Source: an uncultured Gammaproteobacteria bacterium (lineage in GTDB: Bacteria > Patescibacteriota > Microgenomatia > JALYQM01). Taken from it: 64,000 nt of DNA. The stretch spans positions 154,054 to 218,053 of the forward strand of contig CAZHTP010000002.1 in NCBI GenBank assembly GCA_964535655.1, in the 5' to 3' direction. The notes under the pieces are model-generated. The model searched no databases, had not been told where the DNA came from, and saw only the letters and a list, made by a program, of their open reading frames with translations. The first letter of the stretch is position 1, and every line of letters begins with the position of its first letter. This document shows, piece after piece, positions 6,627 through 59,054 of this stretch. The position numbers and the translations under genes are program-made.

Positions 6627-6649
6627 GTATATCTGGTATAATTGGTGCG

Positions 6650-9118: not shown

Positions 9119-9121
9119 AAA

Positions 9122-22608: not shown

Positions 22609-23235
22609 ATGTATGCAGTAGTTGTCAGTCTTGCTATATGTGGTGTAATTTTATTTATTCTTTTTTTAAGGAAAGTACATACTTCGGAAAATAATAAGGA
22701 GCATCATGTTTCCAAACTATATGTAGATTCTGCTATCATCGAGTTTGAAGGTGAACAGATAAGACGGAATGGTAAACTCGATTCACAGGTTCCACCAGGT
22801 CATTTTGAAGAATTAATTGAATCGCTCAATCGCTGCTCAAGATATAGGGAGATTTATGGGAATTATAAAGAATATATCGCCGTAAATACTATTCTTAAAA
22901 TTGGACTGCTAACCCGTTTTGCTCGGCAAGAACGCTTTGCCCATATTGAACCAACGAGTTATCGAGCTGACCTTAAATATGGCGGTTGCTACTTTGAGAG
23001 CACTGATGGTGTCGCCATGGTTTATGCAATAGGTGATACTAGCGCAATCCTAGAAATGTGTTCTCAAATCCATGATAAGGAAGAAATACTTAGAGTAGCA
23101 CAAAAGTGGGCGAAGCAAAATTATTTAGTTACAGCAATTGCGACAGGTGATGTATATAGCGATAAAAAGAATGTCCTCACCCGCGGTGTTAAAGAAAAAA
23201 TGACATTTTTGGGGCTACTTGCTATTCCCAACTAA
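22609..23235 (+). CDS. Hypothetical protein with a P-type ATPase N-domain-like C-terminal segment (possible gene fragment)
   Basis: N-terminal TM. The C-terminus ...AIGDTSAILEMC...KEKMTFLGLLAIPN resembles the nucleotide-binding domain of P-type ATPases up to the L(T)F(L)G(L)... hinge, then stops. Confidence 0.3.
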   Translation: MYAVVVSLAICGVILFILFLRKVHTSENNKEHHVSKLYVDSAIIEFEGEQIRRNGKLDSQVPPGHFEELIESLNRCSRYREIYGNYKEYIAVNTILKIGLLTRFARQERFAHIEPTSYRADLKYGGCYFESTDGVAMVYAIGDTSAILEMCSQIHDKEEILRVAQKWAKQNYLVTAIATGDVYSDKKNVLTRGVKEKMTFLGLLAIPN

Positions 23236-23282
23236 TTAAATCTACTTGATCATCTTCGGGTTTTATTGTATACTACCATTGG

Positions 23283-23582
23283 CCTTAGGAAACAGTTTGG
23301 TTAGTCGGAGAGAGTCGCAAGACGAATCGAAGGCAGGAAAGTCCAGACAGCATAGAGCAAGGGTGTCCCGCTTAACTGTGGGAACGCGAAAGCGCTAGTT
23401 AGAGCATCAGAGACGATTAAATCATCTTCGAAAAGCTTTGGAGATGATGGAAGGTGAAAAGGGCAATCCTCCCCGCTGCAATCCTAGACAGAACCGATAT
23501 CAGGTGGCTTGCCGAGGTTCAAATCAGGAGCATTAGATAGATTACCATTAAAACAGAATCTGGCTTACTCGTCTCCTAAGGC
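23283..23582 (+). ncRNA. rnpB: RNase P RNA (bacterial type A)
   Basis: GGAAAGTCCAGAC...CATAGAGCAAGGGTG..., GGTGAAAAGGGC, and 3' ACAGAATCTGGCTTAC (P4 strands). P1 pairing CCTTAGGA/TCCTAAGG. Confidence 0.75.
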
Positions 23583-23653
23583 TTTTTAAAATCCACAATC
23601 AAAAATCCACTGCTTCTTGCAAAAGCAATTTCTTTTATTGCACAATTGACTAA

Positions 23654-25186
23654 ATGTTAACAATTATAACCTCTGCGGCTATTGTGGGCCTTGAGGCAAG
23701 ACTCGTCTCAATTGAAGTTGACATTCAATCACAAGGCTTGCCCCATTTTATCATTGTTGGACTTCCCGACAAATCCATCGATGAAGCAAAAGAGCGTGTC
23801 AAAAGTGCAATCAAAAATAGTGGGTTCGAATTTCCTAATAAAAAAATTACTGTCAATATGGCACCCGCCGATGTTTCTAAAGAAGGGTCACGGTATGATT
23901 TGCCAATCGCTATGGGGATACTTGCTTCATCAGGACAAATACCTGCAGTTTCTAAATCTAAATTATTTTATGGTGAACTCTCACTTGATGGTTCAATTAA
24001 GCCTGTCAGTGGAAGTGTCTTAATTTCGATTCTTGCAAGAGAATCACCTATAGAGGAACTATATTCTCCACATGATAACGCCAAAGAAGCCGCGCTTATT
24101 AGCGGTACAAAAATATATGCCTGCGATAAGCTAAGTGATCTCGTTTCTCATTTCGCAGATAATTTTCCGCTCACCGTGCAACAACATCATATTCCTCTTA
24201 CTCAAAATAAAAACTCACTCGCAATTTTCACTGACATGTCCGATGTACAAGGTCAACAACAAGTAAAGAGAGCCCTAGAAATAAGCGCTGCCGGAAGCCA
24301 CAACATTATTTTAATAGGCAGTCCGGGAGCAGGAAAAACCATGCTCGCTCGAACATTCCCTTCTATTTTACCCAACATCACCGTTGATGAAGCAATAGAA
24401 TTAACAAAGCTATATAGTGTGTCAGGAAACCTAACCAGCGATTCTCCCATAATTTCTGAGCGCCCGTTTCGCCATCCACATCACACCGGTAGTGTTTCAT
24501 CGATTATAGGTGGGGGAACAAACCCTAAGCCTGGCGAAATCTCGCTTGCCCACCGCGGAGTATTATTCATGGACGAATTTCTCGAATTCCCCAAAATAGT
24601 ATTGGAATCATTACGTCAACCACTTGAAGACGGCGAAATTACGGTGTCTCGTACCGCTTCAACAGTAACATTTCCTGCTAAATTTATTTTACTGGCAGCA
24701 TGTAATCCATGCCCGTGCGGCTTTGCATATAGCATGGACCCCGGCAAGCAATGCTCTTGTAGTAGTTCTCAATTAACACGGTATAAAAAGAAATTATCGG
24801 GCCCTATTTTGGATCGGATCGATTTGCAAGTAAAAGTTCGCGCAGTTCCGATTCACGAGCTAGCAGCACGAAGCGAATCAGAAAAATCAGAACATATCAA
24901 GGAAAGAGTCCAAAATGCTCGAGAGATCCAATATAAAAGATTTGCTCATACAAATTTAAGATCAAATGCTGAAATGAGTAGTAGCGAAGTTCGCGCTCAT
25001 TGTAAATTTTCATCCGAAACCGAAGAATTGTTAAAGTCAGCAGTTACAAGAATGCACCTCTCAGCTCGAGCCTATAACCGCACAATTAAAGTCGCTAGGA
25101 CTATTGCGGATCTGGCTCAGGAAGAAATTATTACTAAGCAACATATCGCCGAATCGCTCCAGTACAGATTTAATGATATTATATAA
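23654..25186 (+). CDS. comM: Mg-chelatase-like AAA+ ATPase YifB/ComM
   Basis: N-terminal Lon-like domain, Walker A GSPGAGKT and a C-terminal ChlI-like region. Confidence 0.85.
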   Translation: MLTIITSAAIVGLEARLVSIEVDIQSQGLPHFIIVGLPDKSIDEAKERVKSAIKNSGFEFPNKKITVNMAPADVSKEGSRYDLPIAMGILASSGQIPAVSKSKLFYGELSLDGSIKPVSGSVLISILARESPIEELYSPHDNAKEAALISGTKIYACDKLSDLVSHFADNFPLTVQQHHIPLTQNKNSLAIFTDMSDVQGQQQVKRALEISAAGSHNIILIGSPGAGKTMLARTFPSILPNITVDEAIELTKLYSVSGNLTSDSPIISERPFRHPHHTGSVSSIIGGGTNPKPGEISLAHRGVLFMDEFLEFPKIVLESLRQPLEDGEITVSRTASTVTFPAKFILLAACNPCPCGFAYSMDPGKQCSCSSSQLTRYKKKLSGPILDRIDLQVKVRAVPIHELAARSESEKSEHIKERVQNAREIQYKRFAHTNLRSNAEMSSSEVRAHCKFSSETEELLKSAVTRMHLSARAYNRTIKVARTIADLAQEEIITKQHIAESLQYRFNDII

Positions 25187-39204: not shown

Positions 39205-40227
39205 ATGAAACAAATCTTCGTAAAAGACCTTAAGCCGGGAACGGCACTTTCCAATATTCCTTTTGTTGTCATTAAACTAGAAAAGAAAATAACCAAAACC
39301 GGTAAAGACTATATGGATATTACCGTTGGCGATAAGTCGGGGAGTATTGTCGGAAAAATCTGGAGCGATAAATATGATGCGTGCTCGGTAGATAAACTCA
39401 AAGAAGGAAGCATCGTATTACTAACCGGCTCTGCTGGTGAATTCATGGGCAAAGTTCAAATGACCGTTACGATGGCAACTGTTGCCGATCAGTATGACGA
39501 AGAAGATTTTGTACCAGTTACTAAAAAAAACGTCGATGATTTAGTGGCATATATTAATCAACAAATAGACTCTCTTTCTGATCGTCATTTGCGAAAATTA
39601 TTGAAAAATATATTTGCGGATCAGAAATTCGTTGCGGTTTTAAGAAAAACTCCGGCTGCCATGAAAATGCATCATGCGTATTCTGGAGGACTGCTTGAGC
39701 ACGTATGTGAAATGCTGCAGTTCGCGTCACCAATGTACGAGGTATATCAGCCGTGCAACACTGATCTCGTGAAAGCGGGTATTATCCTTCATGACATAGG
39801 TAAAACTGAGGAAATAATATGGCGCAACATGTCTATTGAATACTCAGATCGGGGTAAACTTTTGGGACATATACAAATAGGTTTACAAATAATTGATCGA
39901 TACAAGCAACCGGATTTTGATGGTGAGTGCTTACAACTTTTACAACACATTGTTCTAGCCCACCATGGAAAACTTGAATATGGAGCCGTAGTCGTACCTG
40001 CAACAATCGAAGCTAAGATTGTCTCATTAGCCGACGATGCGTCCGCCAAATTGCGTGGGTACATGACGCTATACGAAGATGGAGCAAATAATGGGGCAAG
40101 TTTCTCTGACTATAGTAAGTCCTTAGAGACAATGGTCTATGTACGGAATTATCAGTCGGCTCTTGAACAGTTTATCGAAAAGGCAGAAGAGACGAATCAA
40201 AAATTGGAGCAATTAGAATTACTCTAA
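39205..40227 (+). CDS. yhaM: 3'-5' exoribonuclease YhaM-like (OB-fold plus HD domain)
   Basis: N-terminal OB fold and HD motif ILHDIGK...HH. Confidence 0.7.
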   Translation: MKQIFVKDLKPGTALSNIPFVVIKLEKKITKTGKDYMDITVGDKSGSIVGKIWSDKYDACSVDKLKEGSIVLLTGSAGEFMGKVQMTVTMATVADQYDEEDFVPVTKKNVDDLVAYINQQIDSLSDRHLRKLLKNIFADQKFVAVLRKTPAAMKMHHAYSGGLLEHVCEMLQFASPMYEVYQPCNTDLVKAGIILHDIGKTEEIIWRNMSIEYSDRGKLLGHIQIGLQIIDRYKQPDFDGECLQLLQHIVLAHHGKLEYGAVVVPATIEAKIVSLADDASAKLRGYMTLYEDGANNGASFSDYSKSLETMVYVRNYQSALEQFIEKAEETNQKLEQLELL

Positions 40228-40269: not shown

Positions 40270-42528
40270 ATGTCAGAATCTTCAGAAACCCAAATTCCAG
40301 AAAAGCCGCGTCCACTTTTTGAAAAAATAGTTGCTGAAGAAATGAAAGAAGAAATAAAGCAAGGGTTCCATTTTGACCCTCGTATGGAGCGGGACATGCT
40401 TGAGCGGAATAAAGACACTCCCCCTCAAACGGTTCGTGGAATATTACTCGATACCGTAAGTAAGGAATATCAGGAGCCAAATGCCGCAAGCCTTGTTAGG
40501 AATCTTGAAACGCTCTCTGAATCCGAACAAGAGGAAGAGCATTTAAAAGTGCTAGTTGTTAAAGGTGTCTTCACGAGCTTCTATTTAGGAGAGTCGATAA
40601 TTAAAAGGCTTGCCGAGTCTAAAGGTCAAACTGAAAAGAAAATTGTAAATGAGGGTTCCTGGCGACTAGCAGGGTTATTAGTGGTTGCTCGCGCCACAGA
40701 ATGGCTTACGACACACGCCAGTAAAAAGCAAAAAGTTGACTCACCAGCCAATACGCTCTTAAAAGTGATTAGTAAAAATATTCCTATGATGTCTCGTAGA
40801 AAAGTGACCGGCGGCGATATCCATAAACCATGGGGTGAATTTTGCGAACTAGCTGATCAGAATGAACTAGTATATCCCTTACGAGTAGGAAATGCCAAAG
40901 ACAGTAGTGCGAATTTTATTGATACAGGAGATCCAGAAAATACGCTTGATCACAGAGCTGATGTTTTATCGGATCAAATTCTAGCTATTTGTAATTCATA
41001 TACCGACATGGCACAAATCTCTGCCGAAAATGGCCAGCCATTCGGATATCGAGATAACGAAAATAGAAGAATAGCATGGGATAAAGACAGGGATCTATTT
41101 ATTCCTATCGCATTAGCAAAAAGAATTAAGGGTGAAGTAAAAGCAAAAATTGTAATGGTCCGTCCTCAAGATAATGCTAACAGCACTCTTGCGCACAATA
41201 AGATAGCGTTGGAAGCCGCTTGTAGAGGAGCTATGGAAAGTGAATTAGACTGGAAAGATCCTTCAGAAATTACACGAGCTTTATTTGCAATCAATCTAGA
41301 CAAACAAGAACGACTTATGTCAAATGAAGATACTAAAGAGCTTTTAAATATTGGTTCTGAACTGCGCCCCATGGGAGTTTGGTCTCAAGGAGAAGATGAT
41401 TTAGGTAACGTACAAACTGAATACACCGCTAACCATACGGTAGCAGATGGAATGGCTACCGATCTTTTTGTGAATGGAGGTAAGACTCAAAAAAGAGTTC
41501 GTGATGGCACAGGTAAAACTATTTTGGTTACAAAAGAGTATAAAGGAATTCGAGGGTATTATAACGAGGGTAAATCCGACGAGCAGGCTTTGCATACTAA
41601 TGATGAGGCAAGATACAACACAGGGGAGATCAATGTAGAGCGCTGCTTTAATGATGGAGAGAATCCCGACGTCATAATTTCGAGAACTCACATTGATTCT
41701 GAACAAGGAAGCGATGTACTACAATCGGCGGTAATGATTGCCAACGAAATTTTTATTGATGTTGCAAAAAAAATAACTAAGGATCCTATATGGAACGACA
41801 TCCCCATTGGAGCAAACAATACCCATTCAAGTAAAGACAACCCTTTCCTAAGACTAGTTCCTGCTTCGATTTACAGAAAACATGCAGATAAATTTAACTC
41901 ATTGCCGGATAATTATGCTCAGTATAATGAAGTTTGGGCATTACTCTCCTCGCTAGTATCATACAAAGAAAATCGTTGGCTAATTGATAATTATGACACC
42001 ACAAAAAATGAAGAATCCTGGAATGACCATACTATGCCAGCCTCTCTCGAGTCTATGGCTGGTATAACCGAGTCAAATTTACCGCGGTGGATAAAGAAGA
42101 CTCTTTTTGCAATACAAAAGCATGAAAAGTTAAAAGTACTCAGATATGCATTAACCTACACTCAAACGGTCGTAAGTGACAAGGCGACTAACGGTGATGA
42201 TTTTAAACTTGCCGATAATTCTTCCCTACATAAAACGGTAAATAATGACGGCATGCCGGGTGTGGCAATTAGGCAAGAACATGATAAATTAGGCATAGTA
42301 TTCAGTCAGTCACGATCAGGAACGCTGATACCGCCTGAATATCTGGAAGCATATTCACTTTTGACTACCCGTGTTTTAGTGGATACCAGTAAATTGTTGT
42401 CAGATGTACAAGCCGAATTTAAAGCAACAGGAAAAGTTAATCTAAAAGAGCTAAACGAAAACTTGCAGAAGTTAAAAGAAAAAAATAGAGAATCGACGTT
42501 ACAGGAGGTCACTCGAGCAACGAGATAG
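40270..42528 (+). CDS. Large hypothetical protein (752 aa), no recognisable domain
   Basis: Long uninterrupted ORF. The stop lies 1 nt before the next start. Confidence 0.6.
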   Translation: MSESSETQIPEKPRPLFEKIVAEEMKEEIKQGFHFDPRMERDMLERNKDTPPQTVRGILLDTVSKEYQEPNAASLVRNLETLSESEQEEEHLKVLVVKGVFTSFYLGESIIKRLAESKGQTEKKIVNEGSWRLAGLLVVARATEWLTTHASKKQKVDSPANTLLKVISKNIPMMSRRKVTGGDIHKPWGEFCELADQNELVYPLRVGNAKDSSANFIDTGDPENTLDHRADVLSDQILAICNSYTDMAQISAENGQPFGYRDNENRRIAWDKDRDLFIPIALAKRIKGEVKAKIVMVRPQDNANSTLAHNKIALEAACRGAMESELDWKDPSEITRALFAINLDKQERLMSNEDTKELLNIGSELRPMGVWSQGEDDLGNVQTEYTANHTVADGMATDLFVNGGKTQKRVRDGTGKTILVTKEYKGIRGYYNEGKSDEQALHTNDEARYNTGEINVERCFNDGENPDVIISRTHIDSEQGSDVLQSAVMIANEIFIDVAKKITKDPIWNDIPIGANNTHSSKDNPFLRLVPASIYRKHADKFNSLPDNYAQYNEVWALLSSLVSYKENRWLIDNYDTTKNEESWNDHTMPASLESMAGITESNLPRWIKKTLFAIQKHEKLKVLRYALTYTQTVVSDKATNGDDFKLADNSSLHKTVNNDGMPGVAIRQEHDKLGIVFSQSRSGTLIPPEYLEAYSLLTTRVLVDTSKLLSDVQAEFKATGKVNLKELNENLQKLKEKNRESTLQEVTRATR

Positions 42529-47777: not shown

Positions 47778-48198
47778 AGCTACATAATACATCAAATTTT
47801 TGCTAATTAACCAGAACGTGTAATTGGAACACTTTACACCCATTTCGTCTTGCCGGATGAATTTCTATAGTTACAGTACCACCTTCTAATGATGTTGCAC
47901 TTATTTGAGGACCAGAATGAGGTACTTGGCTCAGTCTGCCAAACTTAAGCCTGCCTAACAAATCAGATTGCACTTCTTGAGGTATCACTTACTCTCATTG
48001 TAACTGGAACACATTTTAAGCCGAAACTCTTAGACTATAAAAAAAATTGGAGAAAAAAAGAGTTCAGGCTCAAAGATGTGCCCATCGGGTTAAAAAACGC
48101 GAACACCTTTGCTAACTCTATCGTGAAGCTATCAACTGTAATTAAGTCAACAAAAAGCGCTATTGCCAGCTATCCAAATTTAGAGTATCAAAGAGGAA

Positions 48199-49923
48199 AT
48201 GAAGATTAGGCACTTAAAGGTTCAAAACTTCCGAGGTATTAAAAGCCTTGACTGGAATATAACTAACGATTTAGTCTGTTTGCTTGGCGCAGGTGATAGT
48301 ACTAAATCAACAATATTGCTTTCAATAGAGTATGCGTTATACCCTTCGTATGGTCTATATTTATGTGATACTGATTTCTATAACCAAGATCTTAATAATC
48401 CTATTATCATAGAAGTAACACTTAGCGATATCCCTGACACTTTTTTAAATGAAAACAAATATGGACTTAGGCTGCGAGGATGGAATGCTGTTGATGGTAT
48501 TCATGACGAACCATTTACAGGTGACGAACAAGCACTAACTATACAGCTTTCAGTTGATGATACCTTAGAGCCGCACTGGGTTGTAATTACTCAAAGACAT
48601 CAGGAAGGACAACCTATATCTCATATGGATCGAGACAGATTAGGAGTGTCGCCCATAGGGGCATTTTTAGAAAAAGATCTATCTTGGGCGAAAGGATCTC
48701 CATTATTTAGATTAACAGGGAGTTTAAATGAAGCAAACCAAATTATGCTAAACGCAAGACGTAATATGCGTCAAAGTATAGTTAGTGATGAGAGTACAAA
48801 GGTATGGATAGACCAGTGCACGCAGTTAGCCAAGAATGCTGAGAACATAGGGGTAAAAAGTAAAAATGTTTTGTTACCAGCCATGGATTTGAAATCAAAT
48901 TCAAGCCACAACTCATATTTGTCATTGTATGATGGAGATATTCCCACTAGGCAGTATGGATTAGGTAGTAAACGATTATTGACTATGTCAATCCAACAGC
49001 AAAGTGTGGCTAACGGTGCGGTGATTCTTGTGGACGAAATAGAACATGGTCTCGAGCCTCATAGACTAAGGCATCTTGTACGGTATTTTAGACAAGCTTT
49101 ATCCATTGAAGACACTATACGTATCGGTCAAGTAATTTTTACAACACATTCAAGTATCAGTATTGAGGAATGCAAAGCAGACGAGCTTAACTGTGTGCTG
49201 AGTAGAAATGGAACAATTGAAGTAGTATCAGTTGACGTAACCCTGCAAGGCCTAGCGCGAAGCTGTCCTGAAGCATTCCTTGGGAAAAAGATAATCGTAG
49301 GAGAAGGAAAAACTGAATTTGGAGTATGTAGAGGATTAAACCAGGAATGGGATTCATGTTTTGGCCTATTAGGAGTAGTACCTGTAAATGGCGTCGGATA
49401 TACGAACGCACCTAAGATAGCAATCCAACTCAAAAAGCTTGGATACGACGTAGCCTTGATGATTGATAGCGATCAATTAATGAGCCAAGAGCATCGAAAT
49501 GAAATCGGGCAACTTGGAGTATGCCTACTAGAATGGGACGGTGGAACTAGCATAGAAGAAAGATTTTTCTTTGACATGCCATGGCCAACTCTTAAAGAAG
49601 AACTACAGGCATTAATAAGCTATTACTCGAATAATCCGTCTCATATCTTTGAACCTATCATACAAAAATTAGGAGTTAAAGCTTCACTCACAGATTGGGG
49701 AGAAGATATTGATAGCTGGTTGTCCAAAGGGATAACAGAAGTACAGTTGAGAACTGCTGCAGGGAAGGCTGCACATAGTTCAGCATGGTACAAGGATCGA
49801 GTAGGAATAGATTTAAGTCAACCCTTAGGCCAGAGAATCGCTAACGCACTAGAGAATATGAAGGGGACAAATACGTATGTTAATCTTAAAAAGCTAAAAC
49901 AATGGATACACGATGGATTATGA
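48199..49923 (+). CDS. gajA: OLD-family ABC ATPase plus TOPRIM nuclease, Gabija GajA-like
   Basis: MKIRHLKVQNFRGIKSL (OLD/AAA_15 N-terminus), a degenerate P-loop LLGAGDSTKST, an ABC signature region, and C-terminal TOPRIM VGEGKTE plus MIDSDQ (DxD). Confidence 0.65.
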   Translation: MKIRHLKVQNFRGIKSLDWNITNDLVCLLGAGDSTKSTILLSIEYALYPSYGLYLCDTDFYNQDLNNPIIIEVTLSDIPDTFLNENKYGLRLRGWNAVDGIHDEPFTGDEQALTIQLSVDDTLEPHWVVITQRHQEGQPISHMDRDRLGVSPIGAFLEKDLSWAKGSPLFRLTGSLNEANQIMLNARRNMRQSIVSDESTKVWIDQCTQLAKNAENIGVKSKNVLLPAMDLKSNSSHNSYLSLYDGDIPTRQYGLGSKRLLTMSIQQQSVANGAVILVDEIEHGLEPHRLRHLVRYFRQALSIEDTIRIGQVIFTTHSSISIEECKADELNCVLSRNGTIEVVSVDVTLQGLARSCPEAFLGKKIIVGEGKTEFGVCRGLNQEWDSCFGLLGVVPVNGVGYTNAPKIAIQLKKLGYDVALMIDSDQLMSQEHRNEIGQLGVCLLEWDGGTSIEERFFFDMPWPTLKEELQALISYYSNNPSHIFEPIIQKLGVKASLTDWGEDIDSWLSKGITEVQLRTAAGKAAHSSAWYKDRVGIDLSQPLGQRIANALENMKGTNTYVNLKKLKQWIHDGL

Positions 49924-51337
49924 TATCGACTCTATTATCAACGCAAGGCGCGGGGCAATAATTGCTGCTGCGGGGTGTGGAAAAACGCAAGCAATAGTAA
50001 AAGCTGTCTCAAAATCACCAGGGCTCCAATTGATCTTAACTCATACTCATGCCGGCGTTGATTCTTTGGTTGCAAGATTCAAACGCTTGGGTGTTAGTAC
50101 AAAAAAGTATCATGTCGAGACCATTGCCAGCTTTGCCATGCGATATACAGAAGCATATCCTGTTTTAAGTGGTTTGATCGAACATTCTTCCGAGAACGAT
50201 ATCTGGGCTGATCGATATGAATCGATGTTCCAATTGTTAAGCTATTCTGTAATTCATAAGATAATCAAAGAGACTTATTCTGGTATGTACGTGGATGAAT
50301 ACCAAGATTGTAGTTTAAAGCAGCACCTGATTTGCACTAAATTAGCGGATCTTATCCCATGTAGGGTTTTTGGCGACCCGTTGCAAAGTATCTTTACATT
50401 TGGAGGACAGCAAGTGGTAAGTTGGGATGAGCATGTATTCCCTAGTTTTGAGCGTCTTCCCGAGCTAAATATTCCATGGAGATGGTATAAATCAAACAAG
50501 ACGCTTGATAGGGAGTTAGGTGATTGGTTACAAACATGTAGGAAACTCTTAATAAGTGGATCACCAATAGATTTAAGAGATGCTCCGAAAGATGCAGTTA
50601 GCTGGGTTGAGCCTGACTCAGATGGATTCCGTACAATCCACAATCATTGCTACCGACTTTTAAAAGCATCTGGCTCTGTTATGGTAATAATGGATCAAGC
50701 TAACCAGTGTCACAGTTTGGCTCGTAACTTGGGAGGTGCGTATCAATCAATGGAAGAGATGGATTCAAAAGATCTACGTTATTTCGCTGCTCAGCTTATG
50801 AGTGCGAGTAGAGTGATGAGAGTGATTGCTATTCTTGAGTTCGCAAAAAGATGTATGACAGAATCGACCGCCATTACAGAGATACAGAAGGCATTTGAGC
50901 TTCAACGACTAGAAAAAATAAAAAGTAAATACCCTCAGTTAATATTTATTTTAGAATCGGCTACGAACAATGACACCTTACGAGACTTAGAAATATCACT
51001 GGACGCGATACAGACGTATTTAAAAGGAAAAATATTTCGTAGGGAACTATGGAGCGAGATGAAGAGAGCTTTGATTTATTCAGCTCAGAATAATGTATCT
51101 TTAATCGATAGCGTTCAAACTGTACGCAATAGAACAAGGATAACAGGAAGATACATCAACCCTAAAATGATTTCACGAACTCTTTTGGTAAAGGGATTGG
51201 AGTTTGATCACGTCCTAATATCTAGTGCAGACAAAATGACTAAAGAAAATCTGTATGTTGCCCTTACTAGACCAACAAGTACGCTAACTATCCTAACCAG
51301 ATCACCTATTCTTCAAGGTATTGATATCAAAACATAA
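49913..51337 (+). CDS. gajB: UvrD-like helicase, Gabija GajB-like
   Basis: Walker A IIAAAGCGKTQAI, C-terminal LYVALTRPTS (UvrD_C). 11-nt overlap with gajA. Confidence 0.65.
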   Translation: MDYDIDSIINARRGAIIAAAGCGKTQAIVKAVSKSPGLQLILTHTHAGVDSLVARFKRLGVSTKKYHVETIASFAMRYTEAYPVLSGLIEHSSENDIWADRYESMFQLLSYSVIHKIIKETYSGMYVDEYQDCSLKQHLICTKLADLIPCRVFGDPLQSIFTFGGQQVVSWDEHVFPSFERLPELNIPWRWYKSNKTLDRELGDWLQTCRKLLISGSPIDLRDAPKDAVSWVEPDSDGFRTIHNHCYRLLKASGSVMVIMDQANQCHSLARNLGGAYQSMEEMDSKDLRYFAAQLMSASRVMRVIAILEFAKRCMTESTAITEIQKAFELQRLEKIKSKYPQLIFILESATNNDTLRDLEISLDAIQTYLKGKIFRRELWSEMKRALIYSAQNNVSLIDSVQTVRNRTRITGRYINPKMISRTLLVKGLEFDHVLISSADKMTKENLYVALTRPTSTLTILTRSPILQGIDIKT

Positions 51338-51425: not shown

Positions 51426-53048
51426 TTAACAAGTCATACCCCCGGCAAAAGTACTGTTACCACTTTGAAAAGTCAGTAGTGGTAAAACAATCGATTGTTC
51501 ATCACCTGCTAGATACTCATCAACAGGAATAACTTGGCCATCCTCCCACACTTCACCTTTCAGATATATACCAAAGTTATCTTTGAGAAATGCTCTGTAG
51601 GCTCGTGTAGCTGTGTGTACTTCATCTTTTGGAATGGAAAGTAGGAATCCATCATGGCAATCGCAGACTACTGGGAAGGTGACTTTTTCCTTTATCAGTG
51701 AGGTAATAATCCACTGTTCAAGTGATTGCATCTGCCATGCGGCATACATAGCTTGTGGGTTCTTTGCGTTGAACTTTTCATACAACTCAGAATAAATATC
51801 TCCACGGAAACCTCGTTTGTATTGCTCCTCCATCTGAAAACTAAGTCCGAGCAGATTCTTCTCTCCCACATGATTGATGATTGTCTCAGGTTTATGAATC
51901 TGTTGCCACTCTTTTCGCTTGGGGTAGAGGTCTTCTAAAAAGCAGATAAGTTTTTCGAGGTGATCTTTGGTGAACAACGCATCGCCCATATTATCAGCAA
52001 CCGTGGCGACAATCCCTTGCTTGTTACACATAAATAGCATGGCATACACGGCTTTTTTTAAATGAGCTTTGGAAACATTAATACCACTCTCTTGCATAGT
52101 TTTCCAGATACTTTTACCTTGTTCAAGAATGTTTGTGAGTTTCGTGTCAGCTGCGTTTGCATTAAGTGCCTTTGCTCCAAGCATCAATTGGCATGACTCT
52201 AGATCAAAATCAATCAATACATCAGTAGGATTGAGTGGTTTGAGGATCATTCGACGTACCTCTTTGGGAATAGCTTGTAAGCCGCCAACAGTATGCCGTC
52301 TACCAGACATCTGCAAGTGAATTGCATCGTGGTGTTGCGGAGTATCTACTAAAGCAACTGTCGAGAGTCCAAATCTAATACTATCTAACCGTTCCAGTTT
52401 GTACGTCCCTTTTTCATCCATGATTAAACTTCGCGCGTCATAGATAGCGTTAACTTTTTCTACATCTATCAAAAATGTACTTTGTTTTAGCTTCTCAAAG
52501 GTTGCTTGCAGATTTGGGTGCATCCGCTTCATATTCTTACTGTTCCAACCTTCACCCAACGTGGTCCGTTTGGCAGGCTTATCACAAAAGAACCGAGGCA
52601 ACACTTTGCCATACTGTACTTCTGTCATTAAAGCGAGCTCCAGACGCTCTAGGAAGTGTTTAGTTAATCGTAGTGATCGGGCTTTTGTTTCATCTCCAAC
52701 GCACACATACTTTAAACTGTGCGAAGCTATCACCCCATGATGTATCAACGGCATCTGGTACGCTTTTTTTAATAGACTCATCAGGCGAGTGCCACGATGA
52801 AAATACTGTTCTGGCTCTTCTCCAGTAAAACGAGAGTAGAGATACGAACAACTGGTGTAGATATACCGCAACTTACGCTTAACCTTACACTCTTGCTCGT
52901 AGGCAATGGCAGTATAGGCAATCTCAAACGGGTCTGGTTTTCGATGGAGGGTTTGGGATAATAATCTGGTGATCACATCACCGTTTACAGTAGAGAGATA
53001 TTTTTCAGAAACATACTCTCTGGCACGTACAACAAGGGTTTCACCCAT
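51426..53048 (-). CDS. Stand-alone family-A DNA polymerase (palm/fingers only, no exonuclease domains)
   Basis: SGRRHTVGGLQAIPKEVRRMI (TGRLSS..PNLQNIP...RR motif), DVLIDFDLESCQLML (motif A, DYSQIELR-like), KKAVYAMLF (O-helix K..Y..F) and VVCDCHDGFLLSIP (motif C, VHDE-like). 540 aa. Confidence 0.65.
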   Translation of the reverse strand: MGETLVVRAREYVSEKYLSTVNGDVITRLLSQTLHRKPDPFEIAYTAIAYEQECKVKRKLRYIYTSCSYLYSRFTGEEPEQYFHRGTRLMSLLKKAYQMPLIHHGVIASHSLKYVCVGDETKARSLRLTKHFLERLELALMTEVQYGKVLPRFFCDKPAKRTTLGEGWNSKNMKRMHPNLQATFEKLKQSTFLIDVEKVNAIYDARSLIMDEKGTYKLERLDSIRFGLSTVALVDTPQHHDAIHLQMSGRRHTVGGLQAIPKEVRRMILKPLNPTDVLIDFDLESCQLMLGAKALNANAADTKLTNILEQGKSIWKTMQESGINVSKAHLKKAVYAMLFMCNKQGIVATVADNMGDALFTKDHLEKLICFLEDLYPKRKEWQQIHKPETIINHVGEKNLLGLSFQMEEQYKRGFRGDIYSELYEKFNAKNPQAMYAAWQMQSLEQWIITSLIKEKVTFPVVCDCHDGFLLSIPKDEVHTATRAYRAFLKDNFGIYLKGEVWEDGQVIPVDEYLAGDEQSIVLPLLTFQSGNSTFAGGMTC

Positions 53049-53481
53049 AACAACGTGTTATGGCTATTGGATAGCCCCCTTGATTCTCTCCATCATTCCA
53101 ACACTACACAACGGTTCCTTTCATCACATCACAAACAGTAATACCATCATCTAACAGTATCCTGTAGGATATGTCAAAAATACTCGTAAGACTTTGACAA
53201 TACACCTAGACTGCATTACACTGAGCTAGTTCCACACATCACAACACAAGGAGACTCCACACAATGGGGTCTTTTTTGTAACTACAAAACAACCCATAGT
53301 GCGGAGTTTGTGCGTATGCATTTAGCCCACACTTACGGCATTATCGTAGAGCACTGTTAGAATAAAGAACGGTAGGGTGTTGCTGTGGTGTTTTGTTGGG
53401 GTTGTTTCTGTTGTTGTGTTTGAGGGTGTGTTTGTTATATCAAAGTGGTTTTTTAGTTGTGGTGACAAACGTTTGTTGTAG

Positions 53482-53550
53482 TTTCGGCTTCATTTTGCCT
53501 CATCAGTACGAGAGTTAACTCGTAAACTACACAAGAGAAAACAAAAGGAC
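53482..53550. repeat. About 70-nt intergenic repeat, copy 1, containing hairpin TACGAG-agttaa-CTCGTA
   Basis: About 75% identical to copy 2 at 54697..54770. Confidence 0.55.
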
Positions 53551-53640
53551 TACTTTAACAACATTATTAAAAACAATAACGGTAAACCGCTAAGTTTCTT
53601 CTAAAGTAACTCCAGTAATGTTTTACAAGTCTACTTTCTA

Positions 53641-53682
53641 GGTAGAGCGTCAGATGTACGCTACAGAGCTTACGCTCTACCA
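53641..53682. repeat. Perfect 10-bp inverted repeat GGTAGAGCGT / ACGCTCTACC with a 22-nt loop, at the boundary of the high-GC block
   Basis: Read directly from the sequence. Confidence 0.6.
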
Positions 53683-53695
53683 TAGAAAATGTTGT

Positions 53696-54010
53696 TTAGA
53701 TTCGGCTGATTCGCTGAACTATGTAGCGAACGACCATCGTTACGCCCGCGAAGTAGATAATCCACCCGAGTGTTATCCCTATCTGGAAAATGTCTTTGTT
53801 GGGGTTGTTGACCAGATAAGGCCGAGCGAGCAGGAGCAGTCCCATAGGCAGCAGCATTATAGCTGTGATATAGCCTAGGAACAGCAGTAGATATCTCCAC
53901 GATCGTTTAACCATGACTGATCTCCACTGAATGGTGAGTGCAACTTGCACGTGCTTGCTGCACTCACCATGCCGTTGTTCGTCTATTCGTACTTGCCGCT
54001 GTTGGTCCAC
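53696..54010 (-). CDS. Small membrane protein (hypothetical, high GC)
   Basis: 104 aa with 2 TM helices. Confidence 0.35.
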   Translation of the reverse strand: MDQQRQVRIDEQRHGECSKHVQVALTIQWRSVMVKRSWRYLLLFLGYITAIMLLPMGLLLLARPYLVNNPNKDIFQIGITLGWIIYFAGVTMVVRYIVQRISRI

Positions 54011-54483
54011 GCCTTCCGGCCGGCGATGTCGTTGGCGGGCTTACCGAACCTTCTTTCGATAGGCGTCATCAGCTTCTCGATTGGTCCGATGGTGCCCCTT
54101 AGGCCGTACTGCTGATAGATCTCTAGCAGATCGGTCTGCGTGTCCACAACCTCGTCGCCAATCTCGGCGTGGTTGGCGGGTGTTCCGGCCAGCGTCCACT
54201 CTTTGCTCTCGGCATTGATCGTTATGTTGATCCTCATGCCTTGCGAACGGACGTAGACGGTGCGGTTGACGTTCTCTGTTGGGGTAAATGGCTTCGCTTC
54301 CTGTCGCTTCAGCACGATAGCTGTGATTAAGTTGACGAGGAGGATAAACTCCCACAAAATCAACCCAACCGACACGCCAGTGATGAAAGCGAGCAGGATG
54401 TGCTCACCTTGTACTAGTGTCCAGAGCAAGCTCAGAACACCAGCACCTACCGCAACGAGAATGCTCGTGCGTGGCTTCATCAT
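53983..54483 (-). CDS. Membrane-anchored hypothetical protein (high GC)
   Basis: 166 aa with N-terminal 2 TM and a soluble C-terminal domain. Confidence 0.4.
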   Translation of the reverse strand: MMKPRTSILVAVGAGVLSLLWTLVQGEHILLAFITGVSVGLILWEFILLVNLITAIVLKRQEAKPFTPTENVNRTVYVRSQGMRINITINAESKEWTLAGTPANHAEIGDEVVDTQTDLLEIYQQYGLRGTIGPIEKLMTPIERRFGKPANDIAGRKAWTNSGKYE

Positions 54484-54696
54484 GCGAACTTCTCCTATAC
54501 TATACGATTAACGCCGGACGGTTTGTGCGATATAAACTCCTTTCACTAGCTGACTGCCAAGAAAAAGAGCTAATAAATAACTCACTTTCTTAGCAGCCAA
54601 ACTAATGAAATAGACTTGTCTTTTGTTTCTCTTGTTAAAGTGCAAACATTCAAACAATAAATTCCCCACTAAAGAGGTTCATTATTTGGATGTTAG

Positions 54697-54770
54697 TTTT
54701 CGCCTTCATTTCGGCTCATCAGGTAGCGAGTCGTTTACGCTACAAACTACAAACAAGAGACAGAGGTAAA
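54697..54770. repeat. About 70-nt intergenic repeat, copy 2, containing hairpin GTAGCG-agtcgttta-CGCTAC
   Basis: The stem differs from copy 1 on both strands, which is compensatory. Confidence 0.55.
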
Positions 54771-54883
54771 GAGACGATTCGGGAACAACAAAAACAAGAT
54801 AACACCGCAAGCGGCATCACTCATTAAGGCTGCGACCTTGTCGTTTTTTCTCTCTACTTCTATCTCATGTTTGTAGTCCAAAT

Positions 54884-55219
54884 CTACTTGCGGCGGCGAA
54901 TGATGTCGACGGTGACAACGATTGCCATTACGATCACGAACACGATCAACAGCGAGATGCTGTTGACAGCGTTCACGACCAAGTGGTCGTTGGTGATCGG
55001 ATCGGGCATTGTCTTCATGCCGAAAAACACGAGCCAGTACAGCATGATCAGGACGGGCAGCGTCATGATGAACGTCACAGTGCGGGTGATGAGTAGGCCG
55101 AGTGTCGTCGATTCAGGCAAGTTGGTTGTCAGGAGATCACTCGAGTTGCTGATAGCATTGGCGATCAAGATGATGAAAGCGGTGATGGCCAGAGCGATAA
55201 GGATCGTGCGGGGTTTCAT
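54884..55219 (-). CDS. Small 3-TM membrane protein (holin-like topology, high GC)
   Basis: 111 aa with a basic C-terminus RRRK. Confidence 0.4.
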   Translation of the reverse strand: MKPRTILIALAITAFIILIANAISNSSDLLTTNLPESTTLGLLITRTVTFIMTLPVLIMLYWLVFFGMKTMPDPITNDHLVVNAVNSISLLIVFVIVMAIVVTVDIIRRRK

Positions 55220-55228
55220 TGCTTTCTC

Positions 55229-55564
55229 CTACTTGTTGTAGTTGTTGTTGACGTTCCGATTGAACACATTCCGCGATGAGAAGAACCACTTGATGAAGGC
55301 GATGAAGCCTAGGCCGACGTAGAAATCGTTGAACGGCAAGTTAACACCGGCTTCACTGGCAGCGGACTTCACAAAACCACCTATCAGCTTGATGGCGTAG
55401 AAAATGGCGACGAGAGTCTCGTGCCGATTGTTCCACACCCAAGCTAGAGAAATGAACGCAATATAGCCAGTCATGGCGATTGCGATCAGTCCAGCAATGA
55501 GCTGCTCGGGAGTGATGCCGAAGTTCCGACGAAGCCAGAAAGCGAAGTCATTCCAGTACCGCAT
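55229..55564 (-). CDS. Small membrane protein (hypothetical, high GC)
   Basis: 111 aa with 2-3 TM. Confidence 0.4.
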   Translation of the reverse strand: MRYWNDFAFWLRRNFGITPEQLIAGLIAIAMTGYIAFISLAWVWNNRHETLVAIFYAIKLIGGFVKSAASEAGVNLPFNDFYVGLGFIAFIKWFFSSRNVFNRNVNNNYNK

Positions 55565-55948
55565 GACGTTTCTCCTTGTGCATTGAGCACGACATCAGCC
55601 AGATGGCCGACGGCTTCCTTCATGGAGAGCTTCCTACTTACTTACTAAAAAATAAGCAGAAAGCTCTCTACAAAAGAGCGGAGAAATATGAGATAGTTGA
55701 GGTAGAGAAATATTCTACAGAGTTTAAGCTGTAAAACCTTTTGTTCGTCCTTTTGAGGGACTATCTGTCTCTTGTTAAGGTACTAAGCTCATTTTAAGAG
55801 CTTACGCTCAACAGAGACAGTTACGCTCGAAATTGAGCCTAGTGACTCTATGAGCGAATATTACTATAGCACATCTTTAGTAAAAATACTATAGGCTGTA
55901 TATATTGAATATGATAATTACTCAATATATGTTTATGGACTTGTGGTA

Positions 55949-56578
55949 CTATTGTGACTTCTGAGCTTCTAAACACTGGTTCTGTTCGGCACTCATATTG
56001 CTAGTGCAATTGTTCATACAAACTGAATCTCCACTGCATCCCTTATCACATTCTTGAGCTTTTCGATAGGCATTGTTCAAACAAATATCAGTGATAAGTT
56101 TCTTTGCTTGAGCGGTATCTTCTTGCAGTTTTTGTTGTTCACTGGCTTGTTTTTCCCTAGAAACTTGCTGGTCTTTTACTATAGAACGTTGATCCATGAC
56201 ACACTGTGCCTGAGAAGTATAGAACACCCACTGATTACCTATCTGGCAACAACCGCTTGTTTCGCAAACGCTTCGTCGAATCATCTTCGTTCCACCTCCA
56301 CACTCAGAACCTACTTCACAAGAGATAATAGGATCATCAGACACATTTGATTCCTTTTGAGTGCTTGTTGTCTGCTGTTGTTTGAAAGTTGGTGTTTGTG
56401 TGGAGAGTGGTTGAGGCGTTGCAATAATCGATTGTTGTATTGGTAATGGCGTTGGAAAGTGTATTGCAATGATCACATCCTTTACTAATATAGTGAGCAT
56501 GATGAGCCCAGTACATCCAATCAAGACGATAGGCCAAAAGATACGATCAACTACTGATGTTCGTTTTTTCTCACTCAT
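55949..56578 (-). CDS. Membrane-anchored Cys-rich extracytoplasmic protein
   Basis: N-terminal TM, a P/Q/T-rich linker and about 14 Cys in the C-terminal half. Confidence 0.45.
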   Translation of the reverse strand: MSEKKRTSVVDRIFWPIVLIGCTGLIMLTILVKDVIIAIHFPTPLPIQQSIIATPQPLSTQTPTFKQQQTTSTQKESNVSDDPIISCEVGSECGGGTKMIRRSVCETSGCCQIGNQWVFYTSQAQCVMDQRSIVKDQQVSREKQASEQQKLQEDTAQAKKLITDICLNNAYRKAQECDKGCSGDSVCMNNCTSNMSAEQNQCLEAQKSQ

Positions 56579-56790
56579 AAACCTTTACGAAGCTTTGCTA
56601 CGATCCATGCAACACAAAAGAAAATCGCCGTGATTCCAGCCCAACTTACAAGATCTTTCATTTCCTTGTTACCGCTTGCATACAGCATTGAAATCACTCC
56701 AGTAACCACAATAGAAGTAAATACTGGTACGGGATCTTCTTTCTTATATTTATCTGGATACATCTCTGCTAAGTCATTTTGAGAAAACAC
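56575..56790 (-). CDS. Small membrane protein
   Basis: 71 aa, 2 TM. 4-nt overlap with the downstream gene. Confidence 0.4.
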   Translation of the reverse strand: MFSQNDLAEMYPDKYKKEDPVPVFTSIVVTGVISMLYASGNKEMKDLVSWAGITAIFFCVAWIVAKLRKGL

Positions 56791-56915: not shown

Positions 56916-57131
56916 ATGAGAAAGAATGCACGTCTTCCTAAGCAGTTGGGTAAGCGCATACAAAAGATTCGTAAGGAAGCTGGTCTAACACAAGAACAAC
57001 TGGCCGAAAAAGTAAATATCTCGCGCGCGTACATAGGATATATCGAACAAGGTCGTAACGAAGCATCACTCACAGTTTTAGAAAAGATTGCCAAGCAACT
57101 CCATATATCTCTATCAGAATTGTTTGATTAA
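56916..57131 (+). CDS. XRE-family HTH transcriptional regulator
   Basis: LTQEQLAEKVNISRAYIGYIEQGRNEASL. Confidence 0.75.
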   Translation: MRKNARLPKQLGKRIQKIRKEAGLTQEQLAEKVNISRAYIGYIEQGRNEASLTVLEKIAKQLHISLSELFD

Positions 57132-57301: not shown

Positions 57302-57487
57302 GTGTCTATCTCAGTACAGAAAGCAAAAAAGTATCTCTCAAAAAAATTTACGAATGAACAAGTACAAGCAGAAATTAACCTGTTGCAACCACTCGTTCAG
57401 CTATGTGTAACTACTGCCATATATAAAAAGCGTATTTCAAAAAACAAAACCTACGAGTACTATAATAACGATAATGAAACAACCTGA
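57302..57487 (+). CDS. Small hypothetical protein upstream of the recombinase
   Basis: 61-aa ORF overlapping the recombinase start. Confidence 0.25.
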   Translation: MSISVQKAKKYLSKKFTNEQVQAEINLLQPLVQLCVTTAIYKKRISKNKTYEYYNNDNETT

Positions 57488-58994
57488 GAGAAAAAATTGT
57501 GTCATTTATGCGCGTGTATCAACTAAAGTACAAGCTGAAGAAGGATACAGTTTAGATCAGCAAATGAAGGCCTGTGAAGAATACGCACATAAACAAGGTT
57601 GGTCTATCGGCGAAAGGTTTAGAGAAGAGGGCGAGAGTGCAAAGACGGGGAAGAGAACGAAACTAGCATTAGTGCTTGAATACTGTAGACAGAAGACAAA
57701 CAAAGTAGATGTTCTGCTGGTATGGCGCGTAGATCGATTTTTCCGCAATGTCGAAGAGCACTATATCTTCAAAGGAAAACTTAAGCAACTCAAGGTCGTG
57801 CTTAGATCTGTTACCGAACCCATTGATGATTCAATTTACGGTAAGTTTATGGAAGGAATTTTTGCATTGCTCGCTGAACTAGAAAACGGGATGAAGTCAG
57901 AGAGAACTATAGTAAACATGATTGAAAAAGCAAAAAAAGGAGAATGGCCATGGGGTGCCCCGCTTGGATACCTTAAGGGTTTTGTTGTAGATGCGGACAA
58001 AGCTCCACTCATCAAAAAGTTATTTGAAACATACGGCAACTCTAACGGTACATATTTAGTTCGAGATTTGGTACCACTCACAAAGCAATGGGGATTAAAG
58101 TCAAAGAACGGTTTAGATTTAGAACATATGGCAGTTGGACGGATATTGAAGAATCCGCTATACAAAGGATGGCTGTATAAAGAAGAATGGGAAATAGAGT
58201 GTAAGGGAACACACACGCCTCTAGTTGACGAAGCGCTCTTCGCAAAAGTTCAACAGTTGCTGCTTGCGCAAGGGCACAAACTGCAAAAAAAGCCAAAGAA
58301 CGACGAGGTGTACCCTCTGAAATCTTTGCTGAGATGTTGTTTTGAAGGGTGTGGCTCAACAATGAGGTCGCATCCTGCTTATAACAAGATAGGAAAGCTG
58401 TATGACTATTATAGTTGTAAAAAAGGGAAAGTCTCAGAAGGTCATATTAAAGTCAGCACTACCAAAGCTCATCAAGCATTTATTCAGCTTTTAAGCACTA
58501 TTACTTTCCCCGCAGAGAGGTTACAACTTTTTAAAGCCATGGTTGTCATTGAATATAACGAACAGATGAGTAGCGTTAATTCATTAATGGCAAAGCTCGA
58601 CCGTGAACTTGACTCGCTTAGAATAACGAAATCAAACATGATAAGGGAAATGTACTCAAAGCAGGATTCTTCTATTAGCCAGGATGATCTTGAAGGAGAG
58701 CTAAAAAAAATCAAGGACGATATCACAGACAGAGAAGTAGAAAGAGGTGAACTGAAGTATTCAGAACTCGAATTAGATGAAGCGATTGAGGAGTGCGTTG
58801 AGTTTTTCAATAATCCAGCCAAGCTCTGGCAACTGGCACCATACCCACATAAGGTGGCACTGCAATCAATACTTTTCCCTGAAGGGATATACACTGACAA
58901 ACAAGGAAACCTGCGAACACCACGATTTGGCGAAGTTGTAGATGGTATCAAGCAATTTGATGACTGTAAAAAACACGAGGTGCTCCCGTTGTGA
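57474..58994 (+). CDS. Large serine recombinase (integrase)
   Basis: N-terminal resolvase domain VIYARVSTKVQ (catalytic Ser) and RVDRFFRN, a recombinase domain, a Zn-ribbon YYSCKKG and a coiled coil. The last 5 codons lie inside the tRNA-Arg gene. Confidence 0.85.
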   Translation: MKQPERKNCVIYARVSTKVQAEEGYSLDQQMKACEEYAHKQGWSIGERFREEGESAKTGKRTKLALVLEYCRQKTNKVDVLLVWRVDRFFRNVEEHYIFKGKLKQLKVVLRSVTEPIDDSIYGKFMEGIFALLAELENGMKSERTIVNMIEKAKKGEWPWGAPLGYLKGFVVDADKAPLIKKLFETYGNSNGTYLVRDLVPLTKQWGLKSKNGLDLEHMAVGRILKNPLYKGWLYKEEWEIECKGTHTPLVDEALFAKVQQLLLAQGHKLQKKPKNDEVYPLKSLLRCCFEGCGSTMRSHPAYNKIGKLYDYYSCKKGKVSEGHIKVSTTKAHQAFIQLLSTITFPAERLQLFKAMVVIEYNEQMSSVNSLMAKLDRELDSLRITKSNMIREMYSKQDSSISQDDLEGELKKIKDDITDREVERGELKYSELELDEAIEECVEFFNNPAKLWQLAPYPHKVALQSILFPEGIYTDKQGNLRTPRFGEVVDGIKQFDDCKKHEVLPL

Positions 58995-59054
58995 CTCGAA
59001 CACAAGACCTACTCCTTAGAAGGGAGTTGCTCTATCCAGCTGAGCTACGGGAGC
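58981..59054 (-). tRNA. tRNA-Arg (anticodon TCT)
   Basis: Manual fold: acceptor GCTCCCG/CGGGAGC, D-arm GCTC-AGCTGGATA-GAGC, anticodon arm ACTCC-CTTCTAA-GGAGT, T-arm TTGTG-TTCGAGT-CACAA. Confidence 0.85.

Follow-up and report, generated by a model that had tools for sequence, protein, structure and literature searches.

The polymerase gene and its motifs

The window analysed here is a 64,000-nucleotide stretch of contig CAZHTP010000002.1, and the subject of this study is a gene on its minus strand at 51426..53048, an open reading frame (ORF) with an ATG start that encodes a 540-residue protein, P0001. The ORF listing, together with fold and profile evidence, identifies P0001 as a family-A-type polymerase. 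The gene lies in an island of ~11 kb, at about 47.9–59.0 kb of the window, that also holds a Gabija defence system and a large serine recombinase. The start context of the polymerase gene, TATGGGT, is kept in both related loci compared with it, a second island (L001) and a contig from a metagenome-assembled genome (L006), so that all three are alike at this point. The dN/dS ratio between the gene for P0002, the polymerase of L001, and its 84%-identical L006 orthologue is 0.10; the polymerase orthologues are under purifying selection, and the gene is a real, functional one.

P0001 begins with an N-terminal region of 245 residues (residues 1–245; 52314..53048, minus strand like all coordinates in this paragraph), delimited by the AlphaFold2 (AF2) model and a conservation scan, which is followed by the polymerase motifs. 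The first of these, located by alignment and hhalign, is a β-hairpin “GR” motif at residues 246–266 (52251..52313), QxSGRRHTVGGLQAIPKEVRR, in which R250 is invariant. It is the counterpart of TGRLSSxxPNLQNIP...RR in Pol I, and residues 248–266 read SGRRHTVGGLQAIPKEVRR (S248-G-R250-R-H-T-V-G-G-L-Q-A-I-P261, then R265-R266). Motif A forms a strand at residues 276–290 (VLIDFDLESCQLMLG; 52179..52223), reads DFDLESCQLML from 280 to 290 and contains the catalytic D282, with Q287 in the position of the Klenow steric gate E710. Motif B, the O-helix, spans residues 327–341 (52026..52070) in the pattern K327-x3-K331-x3-Y335-x3-F339. The motif aligned to “QGTAAD” of Pol I lies at residues 433–448 (51705..51752) and includes A437, Q441 and E444, the family consensus being LAHxxQGxEQ. 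Finally, the motif C β-hairpin at residues 460–473 (VVCDCHDGFLLSIP; 51630..51671) contains C464-H-D466-G-F468, with the catalytic D466 followed by an invariant G467 at the place of Pol I E883. Motif B and the QG-motif were assigned by hhalign and the family alignment, motifs A and C by these and the AF2 model.

Assignment to family A

P0001 is a highly diverged family-A (Pol I-type) DNA polymerase in which both catalytic aspartates are kept in position. Comparison of the family profile with E. coli Pol I by hhalign gives one collinear alignment of 209 columns, residues 247–488 against 665–904, which spans the GR hairpin, motifs A and B, the QGxxxD-type motif and motif C. This alignment scores 40.7 (E 3.7e-4), compared with a maximum of 22.5 for 60 shuffled Pol I sequences and 19.8 for reversed Pol I. 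Residues pair as follows (P0001/Pol I): R250/R668, D282/D705, Q287/E710, K331/K758, Y335/F762, F339/Y766 and D466/D882; the O-helix is aligned to Pol I RRSAKAINFGLIYG, G249-R250 to TGR and D466 to HDE. The same profile scores 29.3 against T7 DNA polymerase and 17.6, which is in the null range, against T7 RNA polymerase; kinship with the latter was rejected on this score.

Structure prediction gives the same result. The AF2 model built from a 26-sequence alignment has a pLDDT of 84.9 and a pTM of 0.80, compared with a pLDDT of 32 when only two close paralogues were supplied. In the model, D282 ends the strand 276–284, and D466-G467 form the turn of the hairpin 460–464/467–473, a predicted placement that is the canonical family-A geometry. 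As judged by Foldseek, the top 50 matches in the PDB are all family-A DNA polymerases, among them Bst large fragment, Pol theta, KlenTaq, Klenow and Aquifex Pol I, with E values of 1.6e-7 to 2e-6, a probability of 1.00 and a core of ~300 columns at ~5 Å. A fold search of BFVD with the model returns phage PolAs.

The best structural matches are thus the Pol I polymerase domain (Klenow, Bst large fragment, KlenTaq) and Pol theta, and the motifs (TGR hairpin, A, B, QG-motif and C) are collinear with theirs. P0001 differs from these in that it shares only 11–16% identity with them, lacks the 5'-3' and 3'-5' exonuclease domains and falls below detection by Pfam PF00476. At the active site, E883 is replaced by Gly and E710 by Gln or His, and the pair F762/Y766 corresponds to Y335/F339 in the P0001 family. 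The second motif C carboxylate (Klenow E883, in “HDE”) is therefore absent, its place being taken by the invariant G467.

The first-pass annotation of this DNA, made from its letters alone, had described a 540-residue ORF at 51426–53048 with family-A motifs in order at the residues given above, and both the ORF listing and the collinear alignment to Pol I agree with it. Its proposal of family-A membership is borne out by the profile comparison (40.7 against at most 22.5 for shuffled sequences) and by the fold matches, the top 50 of which are all family A; the protein falls inside the family, with D282 aligned to D705 and D466 to D882. Two of its details needed adjustment. The change of HDE to HDG in motif C is present, although it is not peculiar to this protein but a family-wide [Y/F/H]DG, and motif A does read DFDLESCQLML, although the invariant aspartate is D282, position 280 being mostly Glu in the family.

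A rare and conserved family

Direct searches with P0001 gave no match in Pfam, PHROGs, NCBIfam or PADLOC. Against PDB sequences, phmmer with P0001 gave chance matches to GTP cyclohydrolase only, and hmmsearch with the family profile was negative. PF00476 (DNA_pol_A) does not match P0001 and matches only one of the 26 family members, at an E value of 0.061. Because the direct library searches were empty, routine annotation could not have confirmed the family-A assignment. A word-indexed search of 5.8 billion proteins returned only P0001 and its 52%-identical paralogue P0002, even with a profile. Scanned exhaustively with HMMER, 1.84 billion cluster representatives yielded 26 proteins, of which 21 reach E<=1e-10. 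Apart from P0002 (52%), the members are 17–28% identical to P0001. A search for related loci with a two-sequence alignment gave one genome locus (L006) and none in metagenome or viral contigs, and tblastn of the polymerase against phage records gave no match. The family is rare, and it is labelled “hypothetical protein” in every database copy.

The family alignment comprises the 26 members, and residues were counted where the corresponding part of the protein is present. R250, D282, K331, D466 and G467 are invariant, and K327, Y335, F339 and Q287 are nearly so; the full set of invariant or nearly invariant positions is G249, R250, G256, R265, D282, L288, W315, K327, K331, Y335, R378, N398, A437, Q441, E444, D466 and G467, which is a family-A pattern. 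Both catalytic aspartates are present in every sequence counted (25/25 for D282 and 25/25 for D466), and position 280, Asp in P0001, is Glu in most members. In the O-helix, K331 is found in 26/26 and Y335 in 25/26 members, K327 is Lys in 24 and Arg in 2, and F339 is Phe in 22 and Tyr in 3. Motif C begins with Tyr in 18 members, Phe in 4 and His in 3, followed by the invariant D-G. The consensus is GRxHTxGGxxxLPKxxR for the GR hairpin, DLxS[A/C][Q/H]L for motif A, PKxxKKxxxYxxxFG for motif B and QGxEQ at the place of Pol I QGTAAD.

The N-terminal region

No exonuclease Pfam domain is matched in P0001, and a conservation scan of the N-terminal 245 residues found no Exo I–III acidic columns, only a weak acidic column at 197. 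As far as its sequence can tell, P0001 is without a detectable exonuclease signature, in agreement with the earlier statement that both the 3'-5' and the 5'-3' domains are missing. R124 is the sole invariant residue of this region. In the AF2 model, the region is mostly confidently folded, with helices in 2–103, a helix at 130–145 and then mixed α/β structure; R124 is carried by a low-confidence hairpin at 107–128, which is flanked by helices 79–103 and 130–145. These two helices around a flexible tip look like a thumb in the model, and the region as a whole possibly comprises an accessory helical domain, a thumb and the N-terminal part of the palm. Taken alone, the N-terminal 245 residues gave no significant hhalign match to Pol I or to gp030 of phage Ma-LMM01. 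The earlier description of P0001 as “palm/fingers only” is consequently right in that a palm and fingers fold is present, whereas “only” is unproven for a protein whose N-terminal 245 residues are for the most part modelled with confidence and may hold a thumb.

The island in the window

The window outside the island is ordinary chromosome, with genes for SecD, a YifB-type ATPase and phosphomannomutase (NCBIfam) and for pyruvate phosphate dikinase and a P-type ATPase (Pfam). No enrichment of HIP1 is seen. At the left end of the island lies the Gabija system on the plus strand, gajA at 48199–49923 (574 residues; PADLOC, E 5.4e-155) and gajB at 49913–51337 (474 residues; PADLOC, E 5.1e-140), overlapping by 11 nt. 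GajA combines an ATPase with TOPRIM and GajB is UvrD-like. The Gabija pair is complete, and it is cargo of the island. The end of gajB is 88 nt from the stop of the polymerase gene, the two genes are convergent, and no ORF lies between them.

Upstream of the polymerase gene is a non-coding leader of 620 nt (53049..53669, minus strand). It contains a C/A-rich, G/T-poor tract at ~53330–53470 on the minus strand, kept in L001 and L006 and preceded by a terminator-like hairpin at 53577–53592; that the leader is a promoter or an origin is a guess. Six small ORFs of 71, 209, 111, 111, 166 and 76 residues follow upstream on the same strand (53670..56790), and none of them matches a Pfam family. By eye, several have hydrophobic N-terminal or Cys-rich stretches, the 209-residue ORF being Cys-rich, suggesting that several may be membrane proteins. 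The G+C content is 47% within 54–56 kb, compared with about 40% elsewhere.

A non-coding block at 55772–55918 (minus strand) is 87% identical to L001 7427–7573 despite differing flanking genes, and is partly kept in L006. It contains an extended −10-like TGCTATAGT; a structured stretch of ~95 nt with a GAGC-GTAA-GCTC hairpin comes next, and two compensatory pairs are seen among the three sequences. The block could serve the island as a small RNA, an origin or a regulatory site. Two copies of the 11-mer GAGCGTAAGCT lie in the island on the polymerase strand (53667–53677 and 55799–55809, minus strand) and one in L001; the recurrence is statistically unconvincing: with one mismatch allowed, at least 2 matches are found in 16% of shuffles.

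A Cro/CI-type helix-turn-helix (HTH) regulator gene at 56916..57131 on the plus strand (Pfam HTH_3, E 2e-18) is divergent from the strand of the small ORFs and the polymerase. It is followed by the large serine recombinase gene (57474..58994, plus strand; Pfam Resolvase plus Recombinase), whose product is the predicted integrase of the island. A tRNA-Arg(TCT) gene at 58979..59054 on the minus strand overlaps with its 3' end the last 16 nt of the recombinase gene, including the stop, and is likely to be the integration site and right border of the island. The left border is bracketed to 47844–48182 by loss of homology to L006, that homology ending at 48182 and 57140 of the window. Outside the island, a 752-residue ORF at 40270–42528 (plus strand) without a Pfam or NCBIfam match lies beside a 340-residue protein with an HD domain and an oligonucleotide-binding (OB) fold, encoded at 39205–40227 (plus strand).

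Relatives on other mobile elements

L001 is a second recombinase island from the same sample, SRR8893623, and encodes the paralogue P0002 (52% identity) at 8916–10526. It contains an HTH gene, small ORFs, the polymerase gene, and genes for a 144-residue resolvase and a 501-residue serine recombinase. No Gabija is present in L001 and no neighbour of its polymerase has a PADLOC match; two of its proteins, of 523 and 524 residues and without a PADLOC or Pfam match, may be unrecognised cargo.

L006 is the contig CAZGHS010000012.1, labelled Gammaproteobacteria, with the stretches of interest at 3111–10300 and 11559–13007. Its regulator module, which includes the HTH gene, is like that of the window, at 80–92% identity (92% for the 71-residue ORF and 81% for the 209-residue ORF), and its gajA and gajB, in the same position and order, are 75% and 62% identical to the window pair. 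Its polymerase is 50% identical to P0001 and 84% identical to P0002. L006 is a mosaic of exchangeable modules, and it carries an AriA/PtuA-like ATPase nearby. Serine recombinases are present in the window, in L001, in L006 and in pMAS, the plasmid described next.

The named members of the family are cyanobacterial. On the 24.4-kb plasmid of Synechococcus elongatus UTEX 3055, a 543-residue homologue follows parA-parB on the same strand, and no Rep is found among the 22 annotated features; the published account names the plasmid pMAS and mentions a maintenance region without assigning a Rep (PMC9239245). In S. elongatus IITB7, plasmid pIITB7_1 carries a 603-residue homologue beside parAB, together with a CyRepA1-family Rep and DISARM. 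In Pseudanabaena FACHB-2040, where the element is a prophage also represented by a 39-kb IMG/VR uncultivated virus genome, and in a 33-kb phage-like JGI contig, the homologue comes after small HTH genes and is divergent from the terS, terL, portal, scaffold and major head genes; an endolysin gene lies downstream. The polymerase gene is hence part of the backbone in three kinds of mobile element, namely plasmids, prophages and integrated islands, and defence systems are its variable neighbours.

Relation to minimal polymerases of mobile elements

TV-Pols are described as minimal family-A-like polymerases of 400–600 residues with a thumb, an Arg hairpin, two Asp and RxxxK, never found with nucleases; some have an all-helical N-terminal domain and adjoin resolvases, integrases or transposases in defence-gene hot spots, and they are predicted primase-polymerases, with cyanophage Ma-LMM01 listed as a carrier (PMC2579912). 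In Microcystis phage Ma-LMM01, gp030 (22746–24266, minus strand) is annotated as a hypothetical protein of 506 residues without a Pfam match and adjoins two annotated transposase genes, which we take to be of IS605 type. Its family has the motifs GLRxYExGGGLQ, D264-x-V-K-C-H, K307 and Q-H-D-G. Comparison of the P0001 and gp030 families by hhalign gives a probability of 64%, an E value of 6.4e-5 and a score of 46.5, compared with a maximum of 22.8 for 40 column-shuffled controls, so the P0001 profile scores the gp030 family above Pol I (46.5 vs 40.7). The two families have [H/Y]DG and D-x-x-[SK]-[CA]-[QH] in common, and the gp030 family is the nearest relative found. As judged by its transposase neighbours, gp030 is probably the TV-Pol published for Ma-LMM01.

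P0001 resembles the TV-Pols, as published, in its Arg hairpin, its two catalytic Asp, the basic-x3-Lys in the fingers, and a minimal core without a nuclease. It also shares with them an extra, mostly helical N-terminal region, an occurrence on small mobile elements with resolvase-family recombinases and in defence-rich regions, a lack of Pfam coverage and, through gp030, an HDG motif C and a His or Gln at the steric gate. It differs in that no fused or adjacent D5-like helicase was found, that 24/26 members of its family have Lys as the first basic residue of RxxxK, that its lineage occurs on plasmids beside parAB and in the early regions of tailed prophages, and that sequence similarity is marginal.

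CcPol-MP of SCCmec, an exonuclease-truncated A-family polymerase, has been shown experimentally to prime DNA de novo with dNTPs together with a small OB-fold partner (PMC7581432); on its island, which has a serine recombinase, it acts with the helicase Cch2 (PMC7581432, PMC10061031, PMC10201439). P0001 is likewise an exonuclease-truncated family-A polymerase on a large-serine-recombinase island with conflict or defence genes. However, CcPol is seen as family A by standard annotation and P0001 is not; no OB-fold partner recognisable by Pfam and no Cch2-type helicase was found beside P0001; and the hosts of CcPol are Bacillota, whereas the named members of the P0001 family are cyanobacterial. 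Pipolins (PMC5695915, PMC11551731) are similar at the level of the element, which is a tRNA-integrated island with a recombinase, its own polymerase and defence cargo, but they encode the family-B piPolB and use mostly tyrosine recombinases with direct repeats, and the polymerases are not homologous.

Taken together, these sequence comparisons place P0001 best among the minimal family-A polymerases of mobile elements (TV-Pol/CcPol-like), as a new member that is very divergent, and its lineage appears closest to the TV-Pol kind. The first-pass annotation did not name these nearest described kinds.

Proposed role of P0001

In the role towards which we lean, P0001 is an active DNA polymerase without proofreading that starts the replication of the excised island, performs it, or does both, and that may prime de novo. 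This role is favoured because the relatives of P0001 are located in the parAB region of plasmids, in the early region of prophages and in recombinase islands. Of the functions suggested by the first-pass annotation, element replication is the one best supported by these contexts, whereas repair or diversification finds little support. In the proposed sequence of events, excision by the serine recombinase would yield a circular form of the island; on this element DNA synthesis would then be started by the polymerase, together with its accessory region at the N-terminus, either by de novo priming, as shown for the related CcPol-MP, and/or by primer extension; and the host replisome would complete replication. 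Use of dNTPs is suggested since Q287 (Gln or His in the family) keeps bulk at the steric gate, since Y335 and F339 are present in the O-helix, with Phe instead of Tyr at the position of T7 RNA polymerase Y639, and since the structural neighbours are DNA polymerases. We infer that P0001 is catalytically active, which substrate it uses, that it primes and that it is the element's replicase from its residues and its genomic context.

Several observations weigh against a replicative role for P0001 or against parts of it: (i) no repeat of the tRNA-Arg end was found at the opposite border of the island, which leaves the borders unproven, although a missing att repeat is expected for a recombinase of the serine type; (ii) upstream of the polymerase gene there are no clear iterons, only weak two-copy repeats; (iii) no helicase, single-stranded-DNA-binding (SSB) or OB-fold partner or recognisable origin was found adjoining the gene, so that the replication module is incomplete by the CcPol/TV-Pol-D5 standard, the sole nearby helicase being the UvrD-type GajB, which is part of Gabija; (iv) the CyRepA1 Rep of pIITB7_1 implies that the polymerase is not necessarily the initiator of that plasmid; (v) the invariant Gly in place of Pol I E883 might lower or alter catalysis; and (vi) the sequence link to TV-Pols depends on the inferred identity of gp030, at an hhalign probability of only 64%. 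In connection with (iv), several Reps per plasmid are common in cyanobacteria (PMC10899382).

A more far-reaching form of the proposal, which we regard as less likely than not, is that the P0001 family is a self-sufficient PolA-type initiator-replicase that would recognise its origin via the N-terminal region, prime and extend, and need no dedicated helicase, SSB or classical Rep.

Alternative functions

The position of the gene next to gajB raises the question of whether P0001 is instead a defence-associated polymerase, acting with Gabija or as an independent effector, for example through synthesis of DNA that senses or blocks phage replication, and not replicating the element at all. The convergent arrangement, 88 nt apart, recurs in the same order in L006 although the polymerases are only 50% identical, L006 has the further AriA/PtuA-like ATPase nearby, and plasmid homologues share replicons with CRISPR-Cas or DISARM. 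We nevertheless consider this improbable: no PADLOC model matches the polymerase, the paralogue island L001 is without Gabija or PADLOC-matching neighbours, the phage and plasmid homologues belong to the backbone, where they follow parAB or adjoin early HTH genes, and the convergent orientation makes the polymerase a separate transcription unit. Gabija, moreover, is a complete two-gene system, and both genes are present here. Use of the same fold as a translesion, repair or mutagenic cargo polymerase comparable to Pol theta or Pol nu, helping the host or diversifying DNA, would be consistent with the missing proofreading domain, with Pol theta among the best structural matches and with umuD on the S. 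elongatus plasmid that carries a homologue. The place of the polymerase gene in the backbone of three kinds of mobile element, where its neighbours are partition, regulator and recombinase genes, argues otherwise, as do the lack of a helicase or lesion-bypass partner and of a chromosomal repair context among the loci examined, and this function seems if anything slightly less probable than one in defence.

Two further alternatives concern the active site. Motif C of T7 RNA polymerase is HDS, and the [Y/H]DG of the P0001 family, likewise without a Glu after the Asp, together with the replacement of the steric-gate Glu by Gln or His, could point to a minimal T7-like single-subunit RNA polymerase or RNA primase that transcribes element genes or makes RNA primers; a combined primase and polymerase activity has been proposed for TV-Pols (PMC2579912). 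Such an enzyme is about as improbable as the defence-associated one, given that the hhalign score for T7 RNA polymerase (17.6) is within the shuffle range while those for Pol I (40.7) and T7 DNA polymerase (29.3) are higher, that the top structural neighbours are all DNA polymerases with no RNA polymerase in the top 50 fold matches, that the position of T7 Y639 and Klenow Y766 is Phe in 22/26 members, and that Gln retains the bulk of the steric gate. The loss of the second motif C carboxylate could also mean that the polymerase fold of P0001 is catalytically dead and has been put to another use, either as an initiator that binds the origin or as a structural protein, and some members of the PolA-SSB family have been reduced to inactive RRM cores (PMC10061031). 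However, the metal-binding Asp pair, the Arg that contacts the template and the Lys of the O-helix do not vary among proteins that, P0002 apart, are 17–28% identical to P0001, a pattern expected only if catalysis is retained, and we hold a dead fold to be very unlikely.

Implications

The P0001 family marks a blind spot of annotation, in that no Pfam, NCBIfam or PHROG model detects it. Its recognition as family A provides a likely replication gene for several mobile elements, cyanobacterial plasmids and prophages, that seem to have none, such as pMAS, which is of relevance to cyanobacterial vectors. The TV-Pol/CcPol class of proofreading-free A-family polymerases would reach new hosts and element types, and the natural active-site variants of the family, [Y/H]DG in motif C and Gln or His at the steric gate, bear on what constitutes a minimal A-family catalytic core. 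The island itself would be a further example of a self-replicating island that carries a defence system, here Gabija. Should the polymerase prove to be a self-sufficient initiator-replicase, it would define a new type of replicon common to cyanobacterial plasmids (for example S. elongatus pMAS), temperate phages and tRNA-linked defence islands, and would be the family-A counterpart of the piPolB pipolins.

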